A DNA stretch of 64,000 nt. Source: an uncultured Anaerolineales bacterium (GTDB lineage: Bacteria; Chloroflexota; Anaerolineae; Aggregatilineales; Aggregatilineaceae). Below, one piece after another: positions 6,437 through 45,181 of this stretch. Numbering within the stretch: the stretch's first letter is position 1; each line of letters opens with the position of its first letter. The notes beneath the pieces are model-generated. The model saw only the letters and a program-made list of their open reading frames with translations. It had not been told where the DNA came from and did no database searches. Made by a program: the position numbers and the translations under genes. Where the stretch lies: assembly GCA_937135955.1 (NCBI GenBank), contig CAKZOB010000065.1, positions 9,818 to 73,817 of the forward strand. The letters are read 5' to 3'.

Positions 6437-8272
6437 TCATCGGGCGGAATCTTCGCCGCGATGAGCCGGTAGAGTAAAGCTGAAGGTGCTACCCTGCTCT
6501 GGCACACTTTCCACCCCTACACTGCCACCCAGCTTCTCGACGATACGCCTGACAATGGACAACCCCAACCCATGTCCGCCGTGATGATGCGTCGCCTTGC
6601 GGTTGAACTCGTCAAATAGGTGCTCCTGCACTTCCGGAGCAATACCCGCCCCGTTGTCTTTGACCCAGAAGCGAATCAGGTCGCCCTCGTGGGTTGCGCC
6701 CAGTTCGATGCGCGGTGGAGAACCTCCATACTTGATAGCATTGCTCAGGAGATTCTCCCACACTTCCTCCACCCAGGGCGCATATCCCAACGCCACCGGC
6801 CAGCTTCGCGGCATACTGATCTCAGCTCCCTTTTGTTGAATCTGTCTGCTCAGCCGCGACCTGGCCTCGGCCACGATCAGCTCCATCTTCAGAGCGCTGA
6901 GCCTGACATCCTCCTGCCGGACGCTCGCCAGCAACAGCAGTTCATCCACGATGCGCACGATCTTGAACGCCATGTTCAATTGATCGTCCGCTAACTGTGC
7001 CGTTTCTTCATCACCTAGCTCGCGCAGACGATCCGCTAGCAGTTCACTCAGGCCAATGATGACCGAAAGGGGATTCTTGAGATCGTGCGCCACCGTATGG
7101 GCGAAGGCGTCCAGTTCGGCGATCAGCTTCTCCCGTTCCTCGATCTCCCGCTGCAAAGCTACATTCTTCAGCCGGTAAATCTCCGCCTGCTGACGCGCCT
7201 TGTCAGCCTCGTGTGTGGCCTCCAGGCTGCGCACGCGGAAAGAGAACATCTCCAGAGAGGCATCCTGATTCAGGACATGGAATTGTTTGTAATGCTCCAG
7301 GCTCTCGCGCAGGTGTCCCGTGCGCTCGTACGTCTCGGCGAGTGCCGCGTGAATCTCGGCCAGCACAGGTTTGCTGCCGATCTCCCCCGCCACCTCACGC
7401 GCCTGCTCCAGCGCCAGCAACGCCTGCCCTGCTTTGTCTTGATCGAGCAGCAGGCGGCCAATGTCCAGCAAGGTAGCTGCCTCGAACTGCCGATAGCCGC
7501 GCTCTCTGGAAAGCGCCAGTGATTGCTCGAAGTAACGCAGTGCCTGTTCGGAATCCCCTGCCGCGCGGTAAATCTTGCCAATGTTGCCCAGCGCTTCCGT
7601 CTCGGCGCGCGGATAGGCGATCTCGCGATCCAGGGCCAGGCTCTGCTGCTCATAGGCCAATGACTGTTCGTAATCGCCTCGCAAGAAGTACGCTTTACCG
7701 ATGCTGTCCAGGGCCTGCGCCTCACCATGCTTGTAATTCAACTGCCGGTGCATGGCCAGGCTGCATTCGAGTTGCGCCAGCGCTGCCTCCCGATCGCCCA
7801 AATGCAACAGCATGTAGCCGGTATCGTTGAGCACACTGGCGATCAGTCGCGGATCACCGCTCATTTCAGCCAGTTGCTGAGCGCGATAGCCCAGTTCCAG
7901 GGCCAGCGAAGAGTTACCCAGGAAGTAGTGAATCCCCGCAATGTGATTGACCGTATAGGCTTGCTTGCCACGCTCACCCAACACGTCGAAGAGAATCGCC
8001 GCTTGTAGCCCCAGTTCGAGCGCTTCCTGATATCTTGACTGATCCCATGCCAGGACCGAACGGATCAACAGGCTGTAGGCCAGCCCATATTGGTAGGGAG
8101 CCTCGCCGGCATTCGCCACTTGCCCGGCTTCTTCAGCCAGGCTCTGGCTGCGCTGAGGGTCACTGTGCAACAAAGCCCAGGCCTGATCGTTGAGCCGATC
8201 GACCTGTTCTTCGCGCGATAGGGCTGTCAGGTGCTGCAGATTGAGGGAGTCAAAACCCATGGCACCGCCCAT
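6437..8272 (-). CDS. Cytoplasmic TPR-repeat sensor histidine kinase (orphan; no response regulator adjacent)
   Basis: Multiple TPR-like repeats, then a coiled coil, the H-box FAHTVAHDLKNPL, an N-box (LLSNAIKYG) and G-boxes (DNGAGI, GHGLGLSI). The start is ambiguous (TTG 8287, ATG 8272 or 8260). Confidence 0.8.
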   Translation of the reverse strand: MGGAMGFDSLNLQHLTALSREEQVDRLNDQAWALLHSDPQRSQSLAEEAGQVANAGEAPYQYGLAYSLLIRSVLAWDQSRYQEALELGLQAAILFDVLGERGKQAYTVNHIAGIHYFLGNSSLALELGYRAQQLAEMSGDPRLIASVLNDTGYMLLHLGDREAALAQLECSLAMHRQLNYKHGEAQALDSIGKAYFLRGDYEQSLAYEQQSLALDREIAYPRAETEALGNIGKIYRAAGDSEQALRYFEQSLALSRERGYRQFEAATLLDIGRLLLDQDKAGQALLALEQAREVAGEIGSKPVLAEIHAALAETYERTGHLRESLEHYKQFHVLNQDASLEMFSFRVRSLEATHEADKARQQAEIYRLKNVALQREIEEREKLIAELDAFAHTVAHDLKNPLSVIIGLSELLADRLRELGDEETAQLADDQLNMAFKIVRIVDELLLLASVRQEDVRLSALKMELIVAEARSRLSRQIQQKGAEISMPRSWPVALGYAPWVEEVWENLLSNAIKYGGSPPRIELGATHEGDLIRFWVKDNGAGIAPEVQEHLFDEFNRKATHHHGGHGLGLSIVRRIVEKLGGSVGVESVPEQGSTFSFTLPAHRGEDSAR

Positions 8273-33695: not shown

Positions 33696-33724
33696 TTGAC
33701 GTTCCAGAACATTAGTGCTACACT
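33696..33724 (+). promoter_or_regulatory. Promoter for the nurA-like gene
   Basis: TTGACG, 17-nt spacer, TACACT. An AGGAGG SD lies 6 nt before the GTG at 33768. Confidence 0.6.
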
Positions 33725-33767: not shown

Positions 33768-34994
33768 GTGACGCTCGAATTCGACAAAGTTGTGTCGCAG
33801 GTACAGGCCATGGGTCATGCCCTCGCCGCGCGCAGCGCCACGCAGAGCGAACGCCTGGCGCTGGCCTGGGAGCGGCTATCGCTGCTGGAAGACCTGGAAG
33901 CAGTACACCAGCGCATCGCCCTGGTGCGCGAGCGCGATGCCGGCTTCCGCGGAGTGGCGCTGTTGCACGAACCTGCTAACCGCGCCTACCCCTTACCCCC
34001 CCTGCCCAAACGCGCCACCATCCTGGCCGCCGATGGCTCGCAGGTCTACCCGAACGCGCACGCTGCCGCGCTCTATTACCTGATCAACGTGGGCGTGTTC
34101 ATCTACTACCATGGCACGGACGCCCTGCCGATCCCCCTCACTCAGCCCTCCCTGCACTACACCGACGACAAGCTTTACGACAAAGAGGGCCGTCTGATTA
34201 CCAACGCGGCGGTCAATGCACGGCGCACCGAGCAGGAACTGGCCACCTTGGTAGATAAGGTTAAACAGCACCGTCCGAGCGACGGGCCACTGCTGGCGCT
34301 GCTAGACGGTCCGCTGTTGTTCTGGGCCGGCAAGGATGTGCCCGACGGCAAAGAGTTGCAGGCCCAATATCTGGGGCACCTGATTCGGCTACACGATCTG
34401 CACGCCAACGACCCTGCCGACCGCGACCGTCCCGTCTGTCTGGCCGGTTATGTGGATCGCCCGTCGAGCGCTTTTCTGATCAGCCTGCTGCACCTGATGA
34501 GCCTCGCCCCCGACGATGTGCGCAAAGCCAGGCTGGAGACTAACGGCGACCTGGAAGGGTTGACCGACCAGCCGTTGCTCTTCAAGCTGCTCAAGCCGGG
34601 CGAACGCTCGGCGTTGCTGGTGCAGCAGTCGCCCCAGAACAAACTGTATCACGACAAAGACCCCAAATATGAGATCGCCTGTTTCTACCTGAACGTGAGC
34701 GCAGCGCCACCCTATCATCTGGCGCGCGTGGAGGTGCCCATGTGGGTCGCCCGCCAACCGGCGCTGGTAGATATCGTGCACGCCCTGATTTACAGTCAGT
34801 GCCAGTTTATGTGGCGCTACCCCTACGCCCTCACCCGCGCCGACGAACTGGCCGTCGTGCGCGATCACGAACGCGCGCAGCTCAACGAATTGATCGAGAT
34901 CGAGCTGCGCCGTCATCAGCAAACTGTCGCGCAGTCGGAGAAGCTGGAATCGAAGGCCGCGCGTCATGGGCGCACTCACTACGACCGCCGATAG
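33768..34994 (+). CDS. nurA: NurA-domain 5'-3' nuclease
   Basis: ILAADGSQV (catalytic Asp context), [30 protein letters not shown]. 408 aa. Confidence 0.75.
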
Positions 34995-35002
34995 GAGATT
35001 TC

Positions 35003-35481
35003 ACCGCCGAGACACAGAGAGCGCAGAGGAAAATATTGTGGAGAAAGATCATTCTGTCCGTATGCTCACACAGCAGATCATTGGTGCAGCGATCGAAGTG
35101 CATCGGGCGCTTGGCCCAGGGTTACTGGAATCGGCCTATGAGACATGTTTGTGCCACGAGCTGTCACTGCGCGAGATCCCATTCGACAGACAGAAGCAAC
35201 TTCCCGTTGTATACAAGGGTGTAGAAATAGAGTGCGGATACAGACTGGATTTGCTGGTAGCCGACACAGTAGTCGTTGAACTCAAGGCCGCGGAACAATT
35301 GCTGCCTGTTCACCAGGCACAGGTTCTATCGTACTTGCGTCTGGGTGGTTGGGAAGTTGGTCTGCTCATCAACTTTCATGTACCTGTCCTCAGGCAAGGC
35401 ATAAGACGCATTGTCCTTGGACTCAAAGAGGCTTGAACACTCTCTACAAGAAGAACCGTGCGTCCTCTGCGTCTCCGCGGT
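35003..35481 (+). mobile_element. Low-GC mini-cassette bounded by inverted repeats, carrying the GxxExxY gene
   Basis: ACCGCCGAGAC...GCAGAGGA (35003-35030) pairs with TCCTCTGCGTCTCCGCGGT (35463-35481). The interior is about 51% GC by hand count over 240 nt, against about 63% in the flanks. Confidence 0.5.
35038..35436 (+). CDS. GxxExxY-family protein (PD-(D/E)XK-like fold)
   Basis: [29 protein letters not shown]...[17 protein letters not shown]...[13 protein letters not shown] at 35038 after AGAGGA; ATG 35062 is the alternative start. Confidence 0.8.
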
Positions 35482-35513
35482 TCAATAGTCTATGTGCTTG
35501 GCAGGAGAAACCT

Positions 35514-36116
35514 ATGGCAGAACAACAAGCTCTTATCGGCCAGGTATTGCGGGCCAGCACGGTCGGCTTTGTGTGCGGCACGCGCAGCCAGTCCATCGAG
35601 CATCCGGCGTTCGGTGCATTCGTGCGCACCCAGCCAGACGGCGCGTCCAGCATGGCGGTGATCGGCCTGATTCACGCCATCAGCATTGACGACGACCCGC
35701 TAGTGCGCCAGATGATCCTGGCCAACAACATGAATCCGGCCACCATTCGCGATCAGCGCGAGAATCGCATGGTGCCGCTGGAGATCAGCGTGCTGAACGT
35801 CGGCTATGAGCAGGACGGCAAACTGTATCAGGCATTACCGCCCCGCCCGCCGCTGAGCCTGGACCCGGTCTATCTGTGCGATGCAGCAACCATAGCCCGT
35901 TTCACTGCACGGCTCGATTTCCTGCGCCTGGTGCTTTCGGCGGGCGATGTACCGACCGAAGAATTGCTGGCAGCCGCCCTGAAGAATGCGGCAGACGTGC
36001 GCCCGCTCGCAGAGCGACGGGCCTTTCTGATAGAGGCGGGTCGCCAACTGGCCGGTCTGCTCAGCCAGGAGTTGCCGCGCTTACAATACGTGCTGCGTCT
36101 GCTCACGCCCGCCTAG
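35514..36116 (+). CDS. Stand-alone HAS-barrel-like protein (resembles the HerA N-terminal domain, no ATPase domain)
   Basis: ATG at 35514 after AGGAGA. The N-terminal ~130 aa parallel the barrel region of the ATPase at 37355. The C-terminal ~70 aa are helical. Confidence 0.5.
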   Translation: MAEQQALIGQVLRASTVGFVCGTRSQSIEHPAFGAFVRTQPDGASSMAVIGLIHAISIDDDPLVRQMILANNMNPATIRDQRENRMVPLEISVLNVGYEQDGKLYQALPPRPPLSLDPVYLCDAATIARFTARLDFLRLVLSAGDVPTEELLAAALKNAADVRPLAERRAFLIEAGRQLAGLLSQELPRLQYVLRLLTPA

Positions 36117-37230
36117 CAGGGCGATGCAGCGTCGCAAGATAGCGCCTGCGTGGCAACGAAACCAGACCGTCTTCCCAGGCGAAGTACCAGGCGGCGGCGA
36201 ACAGAATAATGGGGTACAGCAAGTCCACAGGGGCGACGCGCGTGCCCAGCGCCAGGCGCAACAGGGGCGTGAACGTCGTCGCATAAGCCAGAGTAGCGAG
36301 GCGGCGACTGCGAGCAGCAATGAACAACACTGCTGGAATGAGGTTGACATAATGATTGCCGGTCGCATACTGGGCAAAAACCAGATTGGTCGCCAGGGCG
36401 ATGCTCAGTGTCCAGCGGTGCAGCCCGACCCGCCACGCCAGCCACAGCGCCAGTGCCACACAAACTGTTGCCAGCAAGATCAGCGGCCAGAAAGGGAAGT
36501 CTATGCTGCGGGCAATGCGCCACAGGGTAAGCGTCAGGTAGGCCTTGTCCGGAGGATCAAGCTGATACATTTCCAGGTAGCGTAGCGGCCAGTCTACGCC
36601 GAGAATCACGAACGAGGCCAGCAGCGAGATCACCGGCAACACCAGAACCTTCGCCTGTTCGGCCCGCGACCAGTGACGGATAGCGATCAGATAGACAGCG
36701 GCGACCAGCACCACGTTGATGGGTTTGATTGCCATTAGCCAAAAGGCCAGCGATAGCATCCAGGGCCGACGCTGATGAATGGCCCACCAACCAAGCGCAA
36801 CGCCCAGCGGCACAAAACCATCAACCTGAACGCGAATGAGCACATCGAAAGTGTGCAGATTGAGCAAGGCAAAGACCAGAGCATATCCGGGAAACGATCG
36901 CTTTTCGCGCACCAGATGCGTGCTGGCCAGCAGCATCACCATCGTACCGACTATGAACACCGCCTGTCCAACGCGCAGCGAGAGGGCCGTCAAAGGGACG
37001 AAAAACAGCAAAACCCAGGGAGCATTATAAAAGCCCAAAGTCTGTCGATCATAGAGCTGTGTTTCTCCGGCCAGAAGCTTCTTAGTGACCGGATGGAAAG
37101 TGAAGTAGTAGTCAACGCCGATCGGCCAGACCCTGGCCATCAGCACCACCAGCAAGAGGGTCACAGCGACCAGCATGGCCAGTGCCAGAACTGCAGAGAT
37201 GGCCCGCGAACGAGAAAACACGTCAGACAT
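36103..37230 (-). CDS. Polytopic membrane protein, GT-C/DUF2029-like putative glycosyltransferase
   Basis: 375 aa with about 10 predicted TM helices. The 3' end overlaps the convergent gene by 14 nt. Confidence 0.5.
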   Translation of the reverse strand: MSDVFSRSRAISAVLALAMLVAVTLLLVVLMARVWPIGVDYYFTFHPVTKKLLAGETQLYDRQTLGFYNAPWVLLFFVPLTALSLRVGQAVFIVGTMVMLLASTHLVREKRSFPGYALVFALLNLHTFDVLIRVQVDGFVPLGVALGWWAIHQRRPWMLSLAFWLMAIKPINVVLVAAVYLIAIRHWSRAEQAKVLVLPVISLLASFVILGVDWPLRYLEMYQLDPPDKAYLTLTLWRIARSIDFPFWPLILLATVCVALALWLAWRVGLHRWTLSIALATNLVFAQYATGNHYVNLIPAVLFIAARSRRLATLAYATTFTPLLRLALGTRVAPVDLLYPIILFAAAWYFAWEDGLVSLPRRRYLATLHRPARRA

Positions 37231-37354
37231 GGGAAATGCCTTAATTTATTGATTGCCTGGAAATACGATCTATCACCAAACCATTATAGCCCTTAGGAGA
37301 AACGACCTCGGCTGTCCAGCCATGAAAAAAGGATGAATTCACGGGGAAAATGCC

Positions 37355-39058
37355 ATGACTGCACGCGATCCGCTCTACCCATACCCGGACTCGGACAATC
37401 TGGACGAATGGTTTCCGCGCAGTGCCACGACCTCTCCTGCCACGCCAGTGGCTGGCCAACGGCTGGGCGTAGTCGTTGGCGGCTCGCTCAGCCGAGGGCT
37501 GGATGTCAAGCTCGATCCGGCCACACCCATCGAAGAGCTGGCCGTCGGGCGCTATGTCGTGGTACATGGGTACAAAAAACGCTTCTTCTGCATGATCACC
37601 GACGTGATGCTCGACGCCACCAACCCCGCCATCCGCAGCGACCCGCCCGACCTCAGCGACTCGTTCCTGCGCGAAGTCTATAGCGGCACGGCGGCCTTCG
37701 GCACCATTCACGTCGCACCCATGCTCAGCCTTGACGAAGGCGAGGACGAACCCAAACCAGTGCGCACCATCCCCAGCCACTTCACCCCTGTCGTGATCGC
37801 CTCTGCCGAAGACGTGAACGATGTCTTCGGCCAGGAAGATGCCACGCATTTCCATATTGGCGCGCCGCTAGAACTGGAAGAGACAAAGGTACACCTAGAC
37901 CTGCGCCGCCTGGTAGAACGCTCCGTTGGGGTGTTCGGCAAGAGCGGCACCGGCAAGAGCTTCCTGACGCGCATCCTGCTGGCGGGCATCATCCGCAACG
38001 ACGTGGCCGTCACGCTGATCTTCGATATGCACAATGACTATGGCTGGGCGGTCAAGACCGAGAGCGGCGTGCAGGCGAAAGGACTCAAACAACTTTTCGG
38101 CAGCCGCGTCGCCATCTTCACCCTCGACCCCGACGCCACGCGCCGGCGCGGTGCCACCTACGATCACGCCGTTACCATCGGCTACGACGAGATCGAGCCG
38201 GAAGACCTGGCCATGCTCAAGACGACCCTCGATCTCTCCGACGCTATGATTGACGCCGCCTACGAGCTGCACAAGCTGTGGGGCAAGGGCTGGATTGGCC
38301 GCCTGATTGACGCCACGCCAGAATTGCTCGACGTGCTCAAAGAAGAACTGGCCGCCAGCTTCGTATCTGTGCTGGCGCTCAAGCGACGGGTGCAACGCTT
38401 CGAGCGCTACGATTTCCTCAAACCGCAGGCGGTCGAGGACTCCGCCAGGAAAATCCTGGAATACTTAGAAAACCGCAAGAACGTCGTGCTGGAATTCGGT
38501 CGCTACGGCAACGCCCTGGACGCCTATATCCTGGTTGCCAACTACCTGACGCGCCGCATTCACCAGATGTACGTCGAGCGCGTGGAAAAAGCTCTGGGCG
38601 ATTCAGCCCTTGAGCCGCCCCAACTGCTGATCACCATCGAGGAAGCGCACAAATTCCTCGACCCGCAGATCGCCCGGCAGACCATCTTCGGCATCATCGC
38701 CCGCGAGCTGCGCAAGTACAATGTCACCCTGCTGATCGTGGATCAGCGGCCCAGCGGCATTGATGAAGAGGTGATGAGTCAGATCGGCACGCGCGTCACG
38801 GCGTTGCTCGACAACGAGCGCGACATCGCCGCCGTGCTCACCGGCATCAGCGGGGCGGCTGGTCTGCGCGAAGTCCTGGCCCGGCTCGATACCCGTCAGC
38901 AGGCACTGATCATGGGCCATGCTGTGCCCATGCCCGTCGTGGTGAAAACGCGCACTTACGATGCCGACTTCTACGCCAGCATCAGCCCTGCCGCCATGTC
39001 AGAGACAGACACAGCCGCCCCGCGCCCCAGCGATCCGGAATCGCGGCGGCTGCGCTGA
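37355..39058 (+). CDS. herA: HerA-family (DUF87) hexameric ATPase/translocase
   Basis: N-terminal barrel; Walker A FGKSGTGKSF; Walker B LLITIEEAHKF; LLIVDQRPSGID. Confidence 0.8.
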   Translation: MTARDPLYPYPDSDNLDEWFPRSATTSPATPVAGQRLGVVVGGSLSRGLDVKLDPATPIEELAVGRYVVVHGYKKRFFCMITDVMLDATNPAIRSDPPDLSDSFLREVYSGTAAFGTIHVAPMLSLDEGEDEPKPVRTIPSHFTPVVIASAEDVNDVFGQEDATHFHIGAPLELEETKVHLDLRRLVERSVGVFGKSGTGKSFLTRILLAGIIRNDVAVTLIFDMHNDYGWAVKTESGVQAKGLKQLFGSRVAIFTLDPDATRRRGATYDHAVTIGYDEIEPEDLAMLKTTLDLSDAMIDAAYELHKLWGKGWIGRLIDATPELLDVLKEELAASFVSVLALKRRVQRFERYDFLKPQAVEDSARKILEYLENRKNVVLEFGRYGNALDAYILVANYLTRRIHQMYVERVEKALGDSALEPPQLLITIEEAHKFLDPQIARQTIFGIIARELRKYNVTLLIVDQRPSGIDEEVMSQIGTRVTALLDNERDIAAVLTGISGAAGLREVLARLDTRQQALIMGHAVPMPVVVKTRTYDADFYASISPAAMSETDTAAPRPSDPESRRLR

Positions 39059-39064
39059 ACTGTG

Positions 39065-39721
39065 TCACGCCATCGTCACGGGGAACTCGATCTGGCACCA
39101 GCGATCGAAAGCGGATAAGGGGCGGTTGAGGCAGGCGTACTCGGCATAGACCGCCCGTCCATCCCGACGGGTGTAGCCATCGCCAGCGAACAGCGGGTTG
39201 AGGTGCAGGGTGTGTTCCAGAAACGCCCGCGCTTCTGCCGCTGGGCCGCCCCGCCGCATGATCTCCGCATAAGGCAGCATCTCCAGCGCAGCGCGCGCTG
39301 CCATCAATCGCTCAGCCCACTGCGGATAGGCATTCGCCGCCAGAGCCAGCACATTGGCCCATGTGGCAGGTACCATGTCCACCGGCGGCACCAGCATCAG
39401 GCGAAAGCGCGTCCCCCGCGCCAATAATGCCTTCACCTCAGCGGGCGTATATCCGATCTGCGCCAGCACCTCCGCGCCAGCCCGTCCCAACAAGTCTACT
39501 AGCGCCTCCGCGTCGAGCATGAACACTACCCGACGCGCCGGATCGTCGCTCAACGTGGTGAAGTCGGCCTCGGTCACGCCACGCAGCACCCGGCCACACA
39601 CGCCGCCCAGAGTCAACAGCGGGCGCTCGCCCCGCCCGAAGCACTCAACGAACGCCCGCGCGTATGCGCCACACCAGGTCTCCGCGTCCGCGCTGGAATA
39701 TATGACCCGCAATGTCACCAT
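39065..39721 (-). CDS. Hypothetical protein, no recognised domain
   Basis: 218 aa. Its ATG overlaps the stop of the upstream HAD gene (ATGGTGA). The gene ends 6 nt from the herA stop. Confidence 0.5.
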   Translation of the reverse strand: MVTLRVIYSSADAETWCGAYARAFVECFGRGERPLLTLGGVCGRVLRGVTEADFTTLSDDPARRVVFMLDAEALVDLLGRAGAEVLAQIGYTPAEVKALLARGTRFRLMLVPPVDMVPATWANVLALAANAYPQWAERLMAARAALEMLPYAEIMRRGGPAAEARAFLEHTLHLNPLFAGDGYTRRDGRAVYAEYACLNRPLSAFDRWCQIEFPVTMA

Positions 39722-43642: not shown

Positions 43643-45181
43643 ATGCCATCTGACCTGCACATCATCCAGCTCGACCCGCACGACGACTCGGTCACCGTCC
43701 GCGACCGGTTGACATTCGTGCCCGCGCGCCGGGTGTTGCTGGTCTGGCCTGCCAGCGGGTCGCCGCTGCGCCGCAAACTCGACCTGTTGCTGGTGCTGCG
43801 CCAGGCGAGTCGTCTGGGGCAGAGGCTGGCACTGGTTACAGGCGATCCGGCCATCATCGAGCACGCCCGCGATTTGCATATCTCGGTCTTTCCAGATGTC
43901 GAGTCTGCCCAACAGGCGACCTGGTTGCAGCCACGCCAGCGTGTTTTTGTCCCACCGCGCGACGAGCTGGCCCGCCTGGAACTGGCCGACGTCATCCTCA
44001 GTCAGCGTCTGCCGCCCTCGCCCGGCCAGGCCCGCCGCCGGATGTTGACGCGCTGGCTGGCCTTCCTCAGCGGCCTGCTGGCCCTGGTGATTGCGTTTTT
44101 CGCCGTCGCGCCCAGCGCCACCATCACCCTCACCCCGGCCAGCCGCCAGGTCTTCGAGACGGTGCAGATCGTGGCCGATCCGGCCCTGACCGACATAGAC
44201 ATCGAGAATTTCCGGATGCCCGCCGCGGTGATCACCCTGCAGGCCACTAGCCGCGTCACCATCGAGACGTCCGGGCGTGAACGGGCGGGCGCCACGCAGG
44301 CCCAGGGGCTGGTCACCTTCACCAACCTCACCGATGAGCCACTGCTGATCCCTTACGGCACGATCGTCGCCACTAGCACCACCTACCCCGTCCGCTTCGA
44401 AACGCTGGTCGAGACGACACTGCCCGCCGGTGATCGGGCCAGCGTGCAGGTGCCCGTCCGCGCTCTGCCCGAACACTCCGGCACCGATGGCAACGTCAGT
44501 CCTGGCGCGATCAACCGCGTGGAAGGCGAATTGGCAGGGTTGGTGCAGGTCACCAATCCCAACGCGACCTACGGCGGCGCGCTGCAGGAGCGGCGCATCG
44601 TCACCGCCGACGACCTGCAACGCCTGCTCGTGCTGGGCCGCCAGCAGGTCTTGCAGCGCGCCCGCGATACGCTGCTCTACCAGCTTTCCGGTGAGCGTTT
44701 CCTGGTGCCCGGCTCGTTGCGCATTGTCACCGAGCGGCCTGAATGGACGATCTTCAGCGCGTATGTGGGCGACACCGCCGAGAGCATCAGCCTGGACTTC
44801 CGCGCCGAAGTCCAGGCCGTGGTAGTGGACGAACGTCAGGCGCGGCAGGTCGCCTATGCCGGACTGGCCCCCTACGTTCAGCCGGGTCTGGAGATCGCCC
44901 CGGAAGCGCTCTCCTTCAGCCGAGAGGACATCCTGGATATCACGCCGGACGGACGGGTCACTTTTCTGATGACCGTCAGCGGCAGCGTGGCCGTCGCCAT
45001 TGATGAAGAATACGTGCGGCAGCGCACCCAGGGCGTCAGCGTGGACGAGGCACGGCGCAGGCTCGAACGCGAACTACTGCTCGACCCCTATCATCCGCCG
45101 CGCATCAGCACCTGGCCTCGCTGGTATCCCCGGATGCCTCTGTTGCCGGTGCGCATCACCGTCGAGGTGCGCCTGCCGTGA
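43643..45181 (+). CDS. Single-pass membrane protein with a baseplate-J (gp47/gpJ)-like domain
   Basis: TM WLAFLSGLLALVIAFFAV, then GTDGNVSPGAINRVEGELAGLVQVTNPNATYGGALQE, a baseplate-J-type signature. Its stop overlaps the ruvX GTG (GTGA). Confidence 0.6.
   Translation: MPSDLHIIQLDPHDDSVTVRDRLTFVPARRVLLVWPASGSPLRRKLDLLLVLRQASRLGQRLALVTGDPAIIEHARDLHISVFPDVESAQQATWLQPRQRVFVPPRDELARLELADVILSQRLPPSPGQARRRMLTRWLAFLSGLLALVIAFFAVAPSATITLTPASRQVFETVQIVADPALTDIDIENFRMPAAVITLQATSRVTIETSGRERAGATQAQGLVTFTNLTDEPLLIPYGTIVATSTTYPVRFETLVETTLPAGDRASVQVPVRALPEHSGTDGNVSPGAINRVEGELAGLVQVTNPNATYGGALQERRIVTADDLQRLLVLGRQQVLQRARDTLLYQLSGERFLVPGSLRIVTERPEWTIFSAYVGDTAESISLDFRAEVQAVVVDERQARQVAYAGLAPYVQPGLEIAPEALSFSREDILDITPDGRVTFLMTVSGSVAVAIDEEYVRQRTQGVSVDEARRRLERELLLDPYHPPRISTWPRWYPRMPLLPVRITVEVRLP

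Follow-up and report, generated by a model that had tools for sequence, protein, structure and literature searches.

A HAS-barrel-only gene between nurA and herA in Chloroflexota, a candidate third subunit of the bacterial NurA-HerA DNA-end processor

In a 64,000-nucleotide stretch of the genome of an uncultured Anaerolineales bacterium (contig CAKZOB010000065.1, positions 9,818 to 73,817; this whole stretch is called the window), a 200-residue protein with the predicted fold of the HerA N-terminal barrel is encoded between the genes for the nuclease NurA and the translocase HerA. We call this protein X. NurA-HerA is the DNA-end-resection engine of archaea, and its bacterial counterpart is poorly understood. 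The best explanation of the data, which we hold with moderate confidence, is that X is a third subunit of the bacterial NurA-HerA DNA-end processor, an adaptor or second collar within a vertically inherited housekeeping module. The three genes had been proposed from the nucleotide sequence in an earlier reading of the window (the original prediction). All three are real and lie on the same strand: nurA (33768-34994, + strand, GTG start), encoding a 408-residue RNase H-like 5'-3' nuclease; X (35514-36116, + strand), encoding the 200-residue HAS-barrel-only protein; and herA (37355-39058, + strand), encoding a 567-residue hexameric translocase of the FtsK/HerA superfamily. Pfam and NCBIfam searches also confirmed that the trio is interrupted by a GxxExxY/PD-(D/E)XK cassette and by an opposite-strand GT-C-like gene, which are described below.

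The X coding sequence begins with an ATG preceded at 8 nucleotides (nt) by AGGAG. X has neither a Walker A nor a Walker B motif, and only a helical bundle follows its barrel; lacking a P-loop ATPase domain, it is therefore not a HerA. The HAS barrel (PF09378) is the N-terminal barrel common to HerA and the F1/V1-ATPase subunits, each of them a P-loop ATPase. The window protein has no match in Pfam (none at E ≤ 1), NCBIfam or PADLOC. BLASTP found no similarity between X and the window HerA (E 2.1), an X profile had no match at E ≤ 10 among the sequences of the Protein Data Bank (PDB), and hhalign with a shallow X alignment (effective number of sequences, Neff, 1.9) was not significant (E 0.18). 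An AlphaFold2 (AF2) model built on 26 homologues (predicted local distance difference test, pLDDT, 84; predicted template-modelling score, pTM, 0.80) places a beta-barrel at residues ~7 to 121 and a C-terminal helical bundle at residues 124 to 197. When this model was compared with the PDB using Foldseek, the top 50 matches were all HerA-family chains, with a best E value of 5e-6; the best matches span 127 to 141 aligned columns at a query-normalised TM-score of 0.43 to 0.46. The chains matched come from DUF4297-HerA, Sulfolobus HerA, Thermococcus HerA-NurA, SIR2-HerA and TdpA. At the level of the family, the Pfam HAS-barrel profile is matched by 24 of 70 diverse X relatives (27 to 56% identity; best E 1.8e-5), and hhalign of the 70-sequence X alignment against the cognate HerA N-termini gives an E value of 4.6e-4, pairing X residues 4 to 59 with HerA residues 33 to 87. 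Several X members carry a precomputed PF09378 match in the databases. The resemblance to the HerA barrel noted in the original prediction, in a protein without a P-loop, is thus upheld by AF2/Foldseek, family-level Pfam and hhalign together, while BLASTP is blind to it. On the basis mainly of predicted structure, joined by modest profile signals, X appears to be a HAS-barrel-only relative of the HerA N-terminus.

The X family is large, and protein length is conserved across it. Clustering at 90% leaves 1479 homologues; at 50% identity there are 681 clusters, of which 390 lie below 1e-10. In all full-length members inspected, X is encoded by a gene of its own; two apparent NurA-X fusion proteins (P0216 and P0227) were rejected as Rosetta-stone fusions and are read as frameshifted assemblies. 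The near-invariant residues are D60, D61, Q66, D80, R85, E90, R111 and R138, together with an LPPRPP segment. Some of these residues fall within a helical insertion in the barrel, which the AF2 model predicts at lower confidence, and the charged ones are compatible with a partner-binding surface. An attempt to map the acidic NurA-binding residues D78, E80 and D81 of Deinococcus radiodurans HerA (drHerA) onto the invariant IDDDP motif of X failed; drHerA was retrieved from the PDB set neither by phmmer with HerA nor by a profile of the HerA N-terminal region. Isoelectric points (5.2 for the X barrel, 4.5 for the HerA N-terminus and 9.7 for the NurA tail) give no decisive hint of who binds whom.

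The position of X between nurA and herA is conserved. Scanning one genome per species found relatives of X in at least 420 stretches, from which 80 loci were kept for analysis; these are all from Chloroflexota (Anaerolineae, Aggregatilineales, Thermoflexus and Caldilineaceae), and the known range of X comprises Chloroflexota, Armatimonadota and Thermostichus cyanobacteria. Among X-anchored genome loci with at least 1.5 kb of upstream flank, NurA lies directly upstream of X on a common strand in 73 of 73, with a median gap of about 50 nt that is often 0 to 30 nt. HerA is found downstream of X, within 8 kb, in 42 of the 57 X-anchored genome loci with at least 4 kb of flank, and the start and stop codons of the two genes often overlap by 4 nt. 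In an independent metagenome scan anchored on NurA, X lies directly downstream of NurA in 48 of 58 loci with enough flank. Wherever a genome locus has the full trio, X is the middle gene, and the same arrangement is seen in contigs of other lineages; more than 100 independent loci, from at least three phyla, show the order NurA-X-HerA. In an Armatimonadota metagenome-assembled genome and in two further divergent contigs, the order is again NurA-X-HerA, and X and HerA overlap by 4 to 8 nt, as they do in distant lineages (L084, L085, L088 and L170). One of these loci, L088 in a 6.5-Mb genome, joins X to HerA through a 4-nt overlap and has no NurA. The spacing of the X start and stop codons suggests translational coupling to both nurA and herA. 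From the X-partner pairs and the dispersed loci, we conclude that X is linked to both partners and that the trio can be dispersed. At one locus (L105), herA is divergent and lies upstream of nurA. In L002/L003, a genome from a soil metagenome, a called 69-residue gene without a Pfam match lies between nurA and X (7726-7935).

The three proteins also diverge together. Identity to the window proteins is 60 to 65% for NurA, 70% for X and 77% for HerA in the nearest clade, then 44%, 53% and 64% in the next clade, and 31%, 46% and 35% in a distant one. Vertical inheritance is expected to give such a joint fall from clade to clade. In every clade compared, X is better conserved than NurA, and the gene order persists down to 31% NurA and ~45% X identity.

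Both partners of X look active, judged by their intact catalytic motifs. The 408-residue protein contains the strings quoted for it in the original prediction and matches Pfam NurA (PF09376) at E 1.2e-22, with 81 bits against a cutoff of 21 and coverage of profile positions 2 to 254 of 254. Its AF2 model (pLDDT 89.9) includes an N-terminal helical hairpin, and the top Foldseek matches in the PDB are Sulfolobus NurA (2ygk; 1.9e-10), TM1739 (1zup) and Pyrococcus NurA (3taz). Residues D89 (in ADGSQ), E157 and D180 (in LLDGPL) are kept in at least 97% of 71 orthologues and, from their position in the motifs, would be the Asp-Glu-Asp catalytic residues of an RNase H-like site. The C-terminal tail of NurA (residues 390 to 408; window 34935-34994) is basic, with an isoelectric point of ~9.7, contains the invariant residues S390, K392, K396 and R399, and is predicted to be disordered from residue 400 to 408. 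It may be a partner- or DNA-binding tail.

The 567-residue protein is likewise a HerA/DUF87 ATPase, as originally predicted: the motifs GKSGTGKS, LLITIEEAH and DQRPSGID are all present, Pfam DUF87 matches residues 166 to 402 (E 1.7e-29), and a HAS barrel of its own is recognised at residues 38 to 126 (E 1e-5; 26.0 bits against a cutoff of 25.2). Its sequence matches in the PDB, found with phmmer, are HerA proteins. Walker A, Walker B (IEEAH) and the arginine finger (DQRPS) are intact; the Walker A residues G195 to S202, the Walker B residues E429/E430, and R465 are kept in at least 97% of 53 orthologues. Ahead of the barrel, HerA residues 1 to 35 (window 37355-37460) form an N-terminal extension with the motif (S)DNLD(D/E)WFPR conserved in the clade. 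In the next clade the sequence reads ELDxYF, and HerAs at ~35% identity, the most distant ones, have no extension. The extension is a possible docking peptide.

From fold and gene context, we infer how X could act. HAS barrels form a collar on HerA hexamers, and this collar is where the NurA dimer docks. X would be made together with NurA and HerA and would assemble through its barrel into a ring or collar, probably a ring, that binds NurA and/or HerA. As an adaptor or second collar, this ring would link NurA to the HerA motor or hold it in position there, and HerA would power resection with ATP by feeding DNA to NurA. The module would serve repair or recombination, as chromosomal housekeeping and not as a mobile defence island. 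The gene for X is probably the product of a partial tandem duplication of the herA 5' end. A broader form of this reading, to which we give slightly less than even chances, is that there is an unrecognised three-subunit class of NurA-HerA, spanning at least Chloroflexota, Armatimonadota and basal cyanobacteria, in which a duplication-born HAS-barrel ring is the obligatory adaptor or gate between NurA and HerA.

Several observations weigh against X as an adaptor. HerA keeps its own HAS barrel, so that a second barrel is not obviously needed. The sequence homology between X and HerA is weak, with an hhalign probability of 33%, and the assignment of the barrel draws mainly on a predicted structure. 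NurA-X occurs without a nearby HerA in 15 of the 57 X-anchored loci (loci with NurA-X only are L023-L035, L039, L045, L061 and L062), and NurA occurs without a nearby X or HerA in 10 of the 58 NurA-anchored loci (L092, L101, L102 and a subset of L115-L133). X stands alone at its locus in Thermostichus cyanobacteria and in Capsulimonas-like Armatimonadota (L086, L087 and L169). In addition, there is no settled view of what NurA-HerA itself does in bacteria (PMC9960219). The loci with incomplete trios bear on the main rival explanation, which we consider unlikely: X would be a HerA mimic and a negative regulator, a free HAS barrel that occupies the HerA-docking face of NurA and holds the nuclease inactive, or stores it, until HerA or a damage signal dislodges the barrel. 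It would account for the NurA-X linkage being the strictest (73/73, tighter than the 42/57 of X-HerA), for NurA-X pairs without a nearby HerA and for the lack of any motor domain in X; moreover, the HAS barrel is the NurA-binding surface in D. radiodurans (PMC9960219). However, the locus L088 pairs X with HerA through a start/stop overlap and has no NurA, and translational coupling to HerA is common. This fits a structural partner present in fixed proportion better than a protein that inhibits only NurA. That the window holds an ordinary two-gene NurA-HerA pair with X as an unrelated chance neighbour is highly improbable, even though unrelated insertions separate the three genes here and databases carry no annotation for X. 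The fold of X is that of the NurA-binding domain of HerA, and chance adjacency is excluded because the order NurA-X-HerA recurs in more than 100 independent loci in at least three phyla; the synteny counts given above, X-anchored and NurA-anchored, refute it, and the neighbourhood survey bears out the proposal that X is a conserved third gene.

A further explanation is that the trio is an anti-phage or anti-plasmid system of the HerA-plus-effector kind, with NurA as nuclease effector and X as sensor or assembly factor. HerA motors drive the SIR2-HerA, DUF4297-HerA and TdpAB anti-phage systems, and the HerA chains of these are the best structural matches of the X barrel. The HerA of the window matches PADLOC HerA models, and small nuclease-type genes (GxxExxY, GIY-YIG and Uma2) accumulate in the gaps of the operon. 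However, the PADLOC matches are to generic HerA models only, partial and confined to the C-terminal ATPase part, and neither NurA nor X has a PADLOC match; no known defence system was matched. Against the NCBIfam HerA_antiphage model, HerA scores 83 bits, where the cutoff is 800, and no SIR2 or DUF4297 effector lies next to herA in the window. No X homologue was found in 72,556 plasmids, 50,697 phage genomes or IMG/VR contigs (the scan of these viral contigs was run with a closer set of X relatives), and the X model has no significant structural match among viral proteins. There is one copy of the module per locus, its three proteins diverge jointly, and its housekeeping contexts are stable within lineages. 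In the window, the neighbours of the module are fabF, fabH, an rRNA/tRNA methyltransferase, a HAD hydrolase and alaS; elsewhere the window carries ATP synthase alpha/beta, Obg, AdoHcy hydrolase, cytochrome bd and a P-type ATPase, and it is housekeeping throughout. The methyltransferase-NurA synteny is kept in relatives, and in more distant lineages the neighbours of NurA-X-HerA are other genes, equally metabolic. The module is core and chromosomal. Given this core context and the lack of a mobile or defence signal, a vertically inherited core function fits better than a defence island, and we regard the defence explanation as improbable. The accessory-region character that the original prediction had ascribed to NurA-X-HerA is not supported, given the conserved housekeeping neighbourhood, the joint divergence and the absence from the plasmid and phage collections.

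The accessory-region hallmarks reported for the module have a different source. GC content is 0.51 across the GxxExxY cassette and ~0.545 across the 5' portion of the GT87 gene together with the spacer upstream of herA, compared with ~0.62 around them. The low-GC signal stems from the inserted cassette and the GT87 gene, and the hallmarks are not those of the module. The GxxExxY/PDDEXK_3 mini-cassette (35004-35482, + strand) lies outside the module and contains an open reading frame (ORF) at 35062-35436 that matches Pfam PDDEXK_3 (3.7e-44) and TIGR04256 (1e-45). It is bordered by imperfect inverted repeats, aligned by hand, at 35004-35027 and 35459-35482, which are built from short tandem units; the repeat in the window is ACCGCCGAGACACAGAGAGCGCAG, and the reverse complement of the partner arm is ACCGCGGAGACGCAGAGGACGCAC. 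Bounded cassettes of this type are also present in L006, L022, L056, L063, L068, L070, L073 and L076, and in other genomes they occupy differing positions in the operon, sometimes in two copies. The arms consist of (C/A)GCAGAGG-type units in high-GC lineages and of CAC(A/G/T)AAGG-type units in low-GC Anaerolineales. Both arms of a cassette are alike in sharing the unit type of their lineage, and the arms therefore co-vary between lineages. By its sequence, the cassette looks like a hairpin-bounded mobile or selfish mini-cassette.

The second insertion, a GT87-family (GT-C fold) membrane glycosyltransferase-like gene (36103-37230, - strand; Pfam GT87, 1.4e-9), is also outside the module. Its 3' end overlaps convergently with that of X by 14 nt (36103-36116), with X on the + strand stopping at 36116 and the GT87 gene on the - strand ending at 36103. 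Only six genome loci have a GT87 gene separating X from HerA, and its orientation varies. A survey of the NurA|X and X|HerA gaps of loci L001-L083 yielded 44 ORFs; the recurrent families among them were PDDEXK_3/GxxExxY (10), GT87 (six), alpha-amylase (three), metallophosphatase (three), GIY-YIG (two) and SnoaL (two), with Uma2, a 23S-rRNA-IVS protein, a pentapeptide protein and a methyltransferase each found singly. The operon has thus acquired foreign genes in its gaps repeatedly, and the insertions are a mix of unrelated and selfish-looking genes, variable in position.

Six ORFs occupy 33768-39721 of the window. The last of them, an orphan ORF of 218 residues (39065-39721, - strand) directly after herA, has no Pfam, NCBIfam or PADLOC match; its tblastn matches are limited to the two closest relatives, L004 and L005, at ~80% identity, and it is outside the conserved module. 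Upstream of nurA, a consensus scan finds the promoter-like site TTGACG-17-TACACT (33696-33724, + strand), with nine of 12 consensus matches and a TG extension. The site claimed as the nurA promoter is therefore present, but the number of such sites is not above expectation (three in the scan against 2.0 ± 1.3 in shuffled sequence). Because the count does not exceed that of the shuffles, the site is no evidence on its own, and its reading as a promoter is suggestive only. No Rfam match was found in the region. Just 3' of alaS, an ORF of 512 residues (43643-45181, + strand) has a weak match to Pfam Baseplate_J-like (1.4e-8); it might be part of a phage-tail-like element or a spurious high-GC ORF.

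If X acts as proposed, it would be the first collar domain of a ring translocase to act as a separate subunit, and a rare example of a motor collar domain that evolved into a gene of its own. Strict co-inheritance of a protein with the fold of the NurA-binding domain of HerA alters which subunits the complex is expected to contain in several bacterial phyla, and it raises the concrete, testable question of whether the free barrel acts as a bridge, a cap or an inhibitor. A set of hypothetical proteins of ~200 residues (the 681 clusters at 50% identity) also gains a structural and contextual assignment. The phenotypes of nurA and herA deletions in Deinococcus and Thermus are mild or contradictory, and a three-subunit class, if real, could be part of the reason why the physiology of NurA-HerA in bacteria has stayed obscure.

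A search of the literature on NurA/HerA operons, the HAS barrel, and Chloroflexi or cyanobacterial HerA found no description of a barrel-only third subunit, with an early passing mention possible, and the curated libraries Pfam, NCBIfam and PADLOC have no family for X. The suggestion that such a subunit is undescribed therefore holds, with only automated barrel labels found on some members, namely "HAS barrel domain" at JGI for one member and "Helicase HerA barrel domain-containing protein" in UniProt for the protein of Thermostichus vulcanus. The HAS barrel of X differs from that of HerA and the F1/V1-ATPases in being free-standing, in a separate gene and with its own C-terminal helical bundle. 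To our knowledge, archaea have no reported counterpart of the additional barrel-only subunit. The Mre11-Rad50-HerA-NurA operon of archaea shares with the window the NurA and HerA folds and the presumed ATP-driven feeding of DNA to a NurA dimer; indeed, Sulfolobus NurA is the best fold match of the NurA model, and X and HerA both match the HerA of Sulfolobus or Thermococcus. In contrast to that operon, mre11 and rad50 are missing here, as the original prediction had it: no Rad50/SbcC or Mre11/SbcD was found among the ten largest other ORFs of the window and the immediate neighbours of the module, nor in the related loci inspected. The HerA-based anti-phage systems have in common with this module a HerA hexamer with a partner-recruiting HAS-barrel face, and their HerA chains are the top structural matches of X. 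However, the partners there are SIR2, DUF4297 or TdpB, with no NurA and no free HAS-barrel protein, whereas the HerA described here misses the NCBIfam equivalog cutoffs about tenfold and lies in a core-genomic context.

The closest comparison is with the two-gene NurA-HerA of Deinococcus-Thermus (drNurA-drHerA in D. radiodurans, nurA-hepA in T. thermophilus), which likewise consists of an RNase H-like NurA and a hexameric HAS-barrel/DUF87 HerA translocase, with nurA first, in a chromosomal setting and with no adjacent mre11 or rad50. In D. radiodurans, the HAS-barrel collar of HerA is the docking surface of the NurA dimer, and the contact needs acidic barrel residues and basic NurA motifs (PMC9960219). 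Sequence similarity to the D. radiodurans proteins is low, and phmmer with NurA and HerA retrieved no D. radiodurans chain from the PDB. In Thermus, nurA and hepA form a strict duet in which the nurA stop overlaps the hepA start, and NurA has 293 residues (PMC5448004), whereas the NurA described here has ~400 residues and an N-terminal helical hairpin. The distinguishing feature is the conserved gene for a 200-residue HAS-barrel-only protein between nurA and herA, and with it the NurA-X-HerA architecture differs from both the two-gene bacterial and the four-gene archaeal operons.

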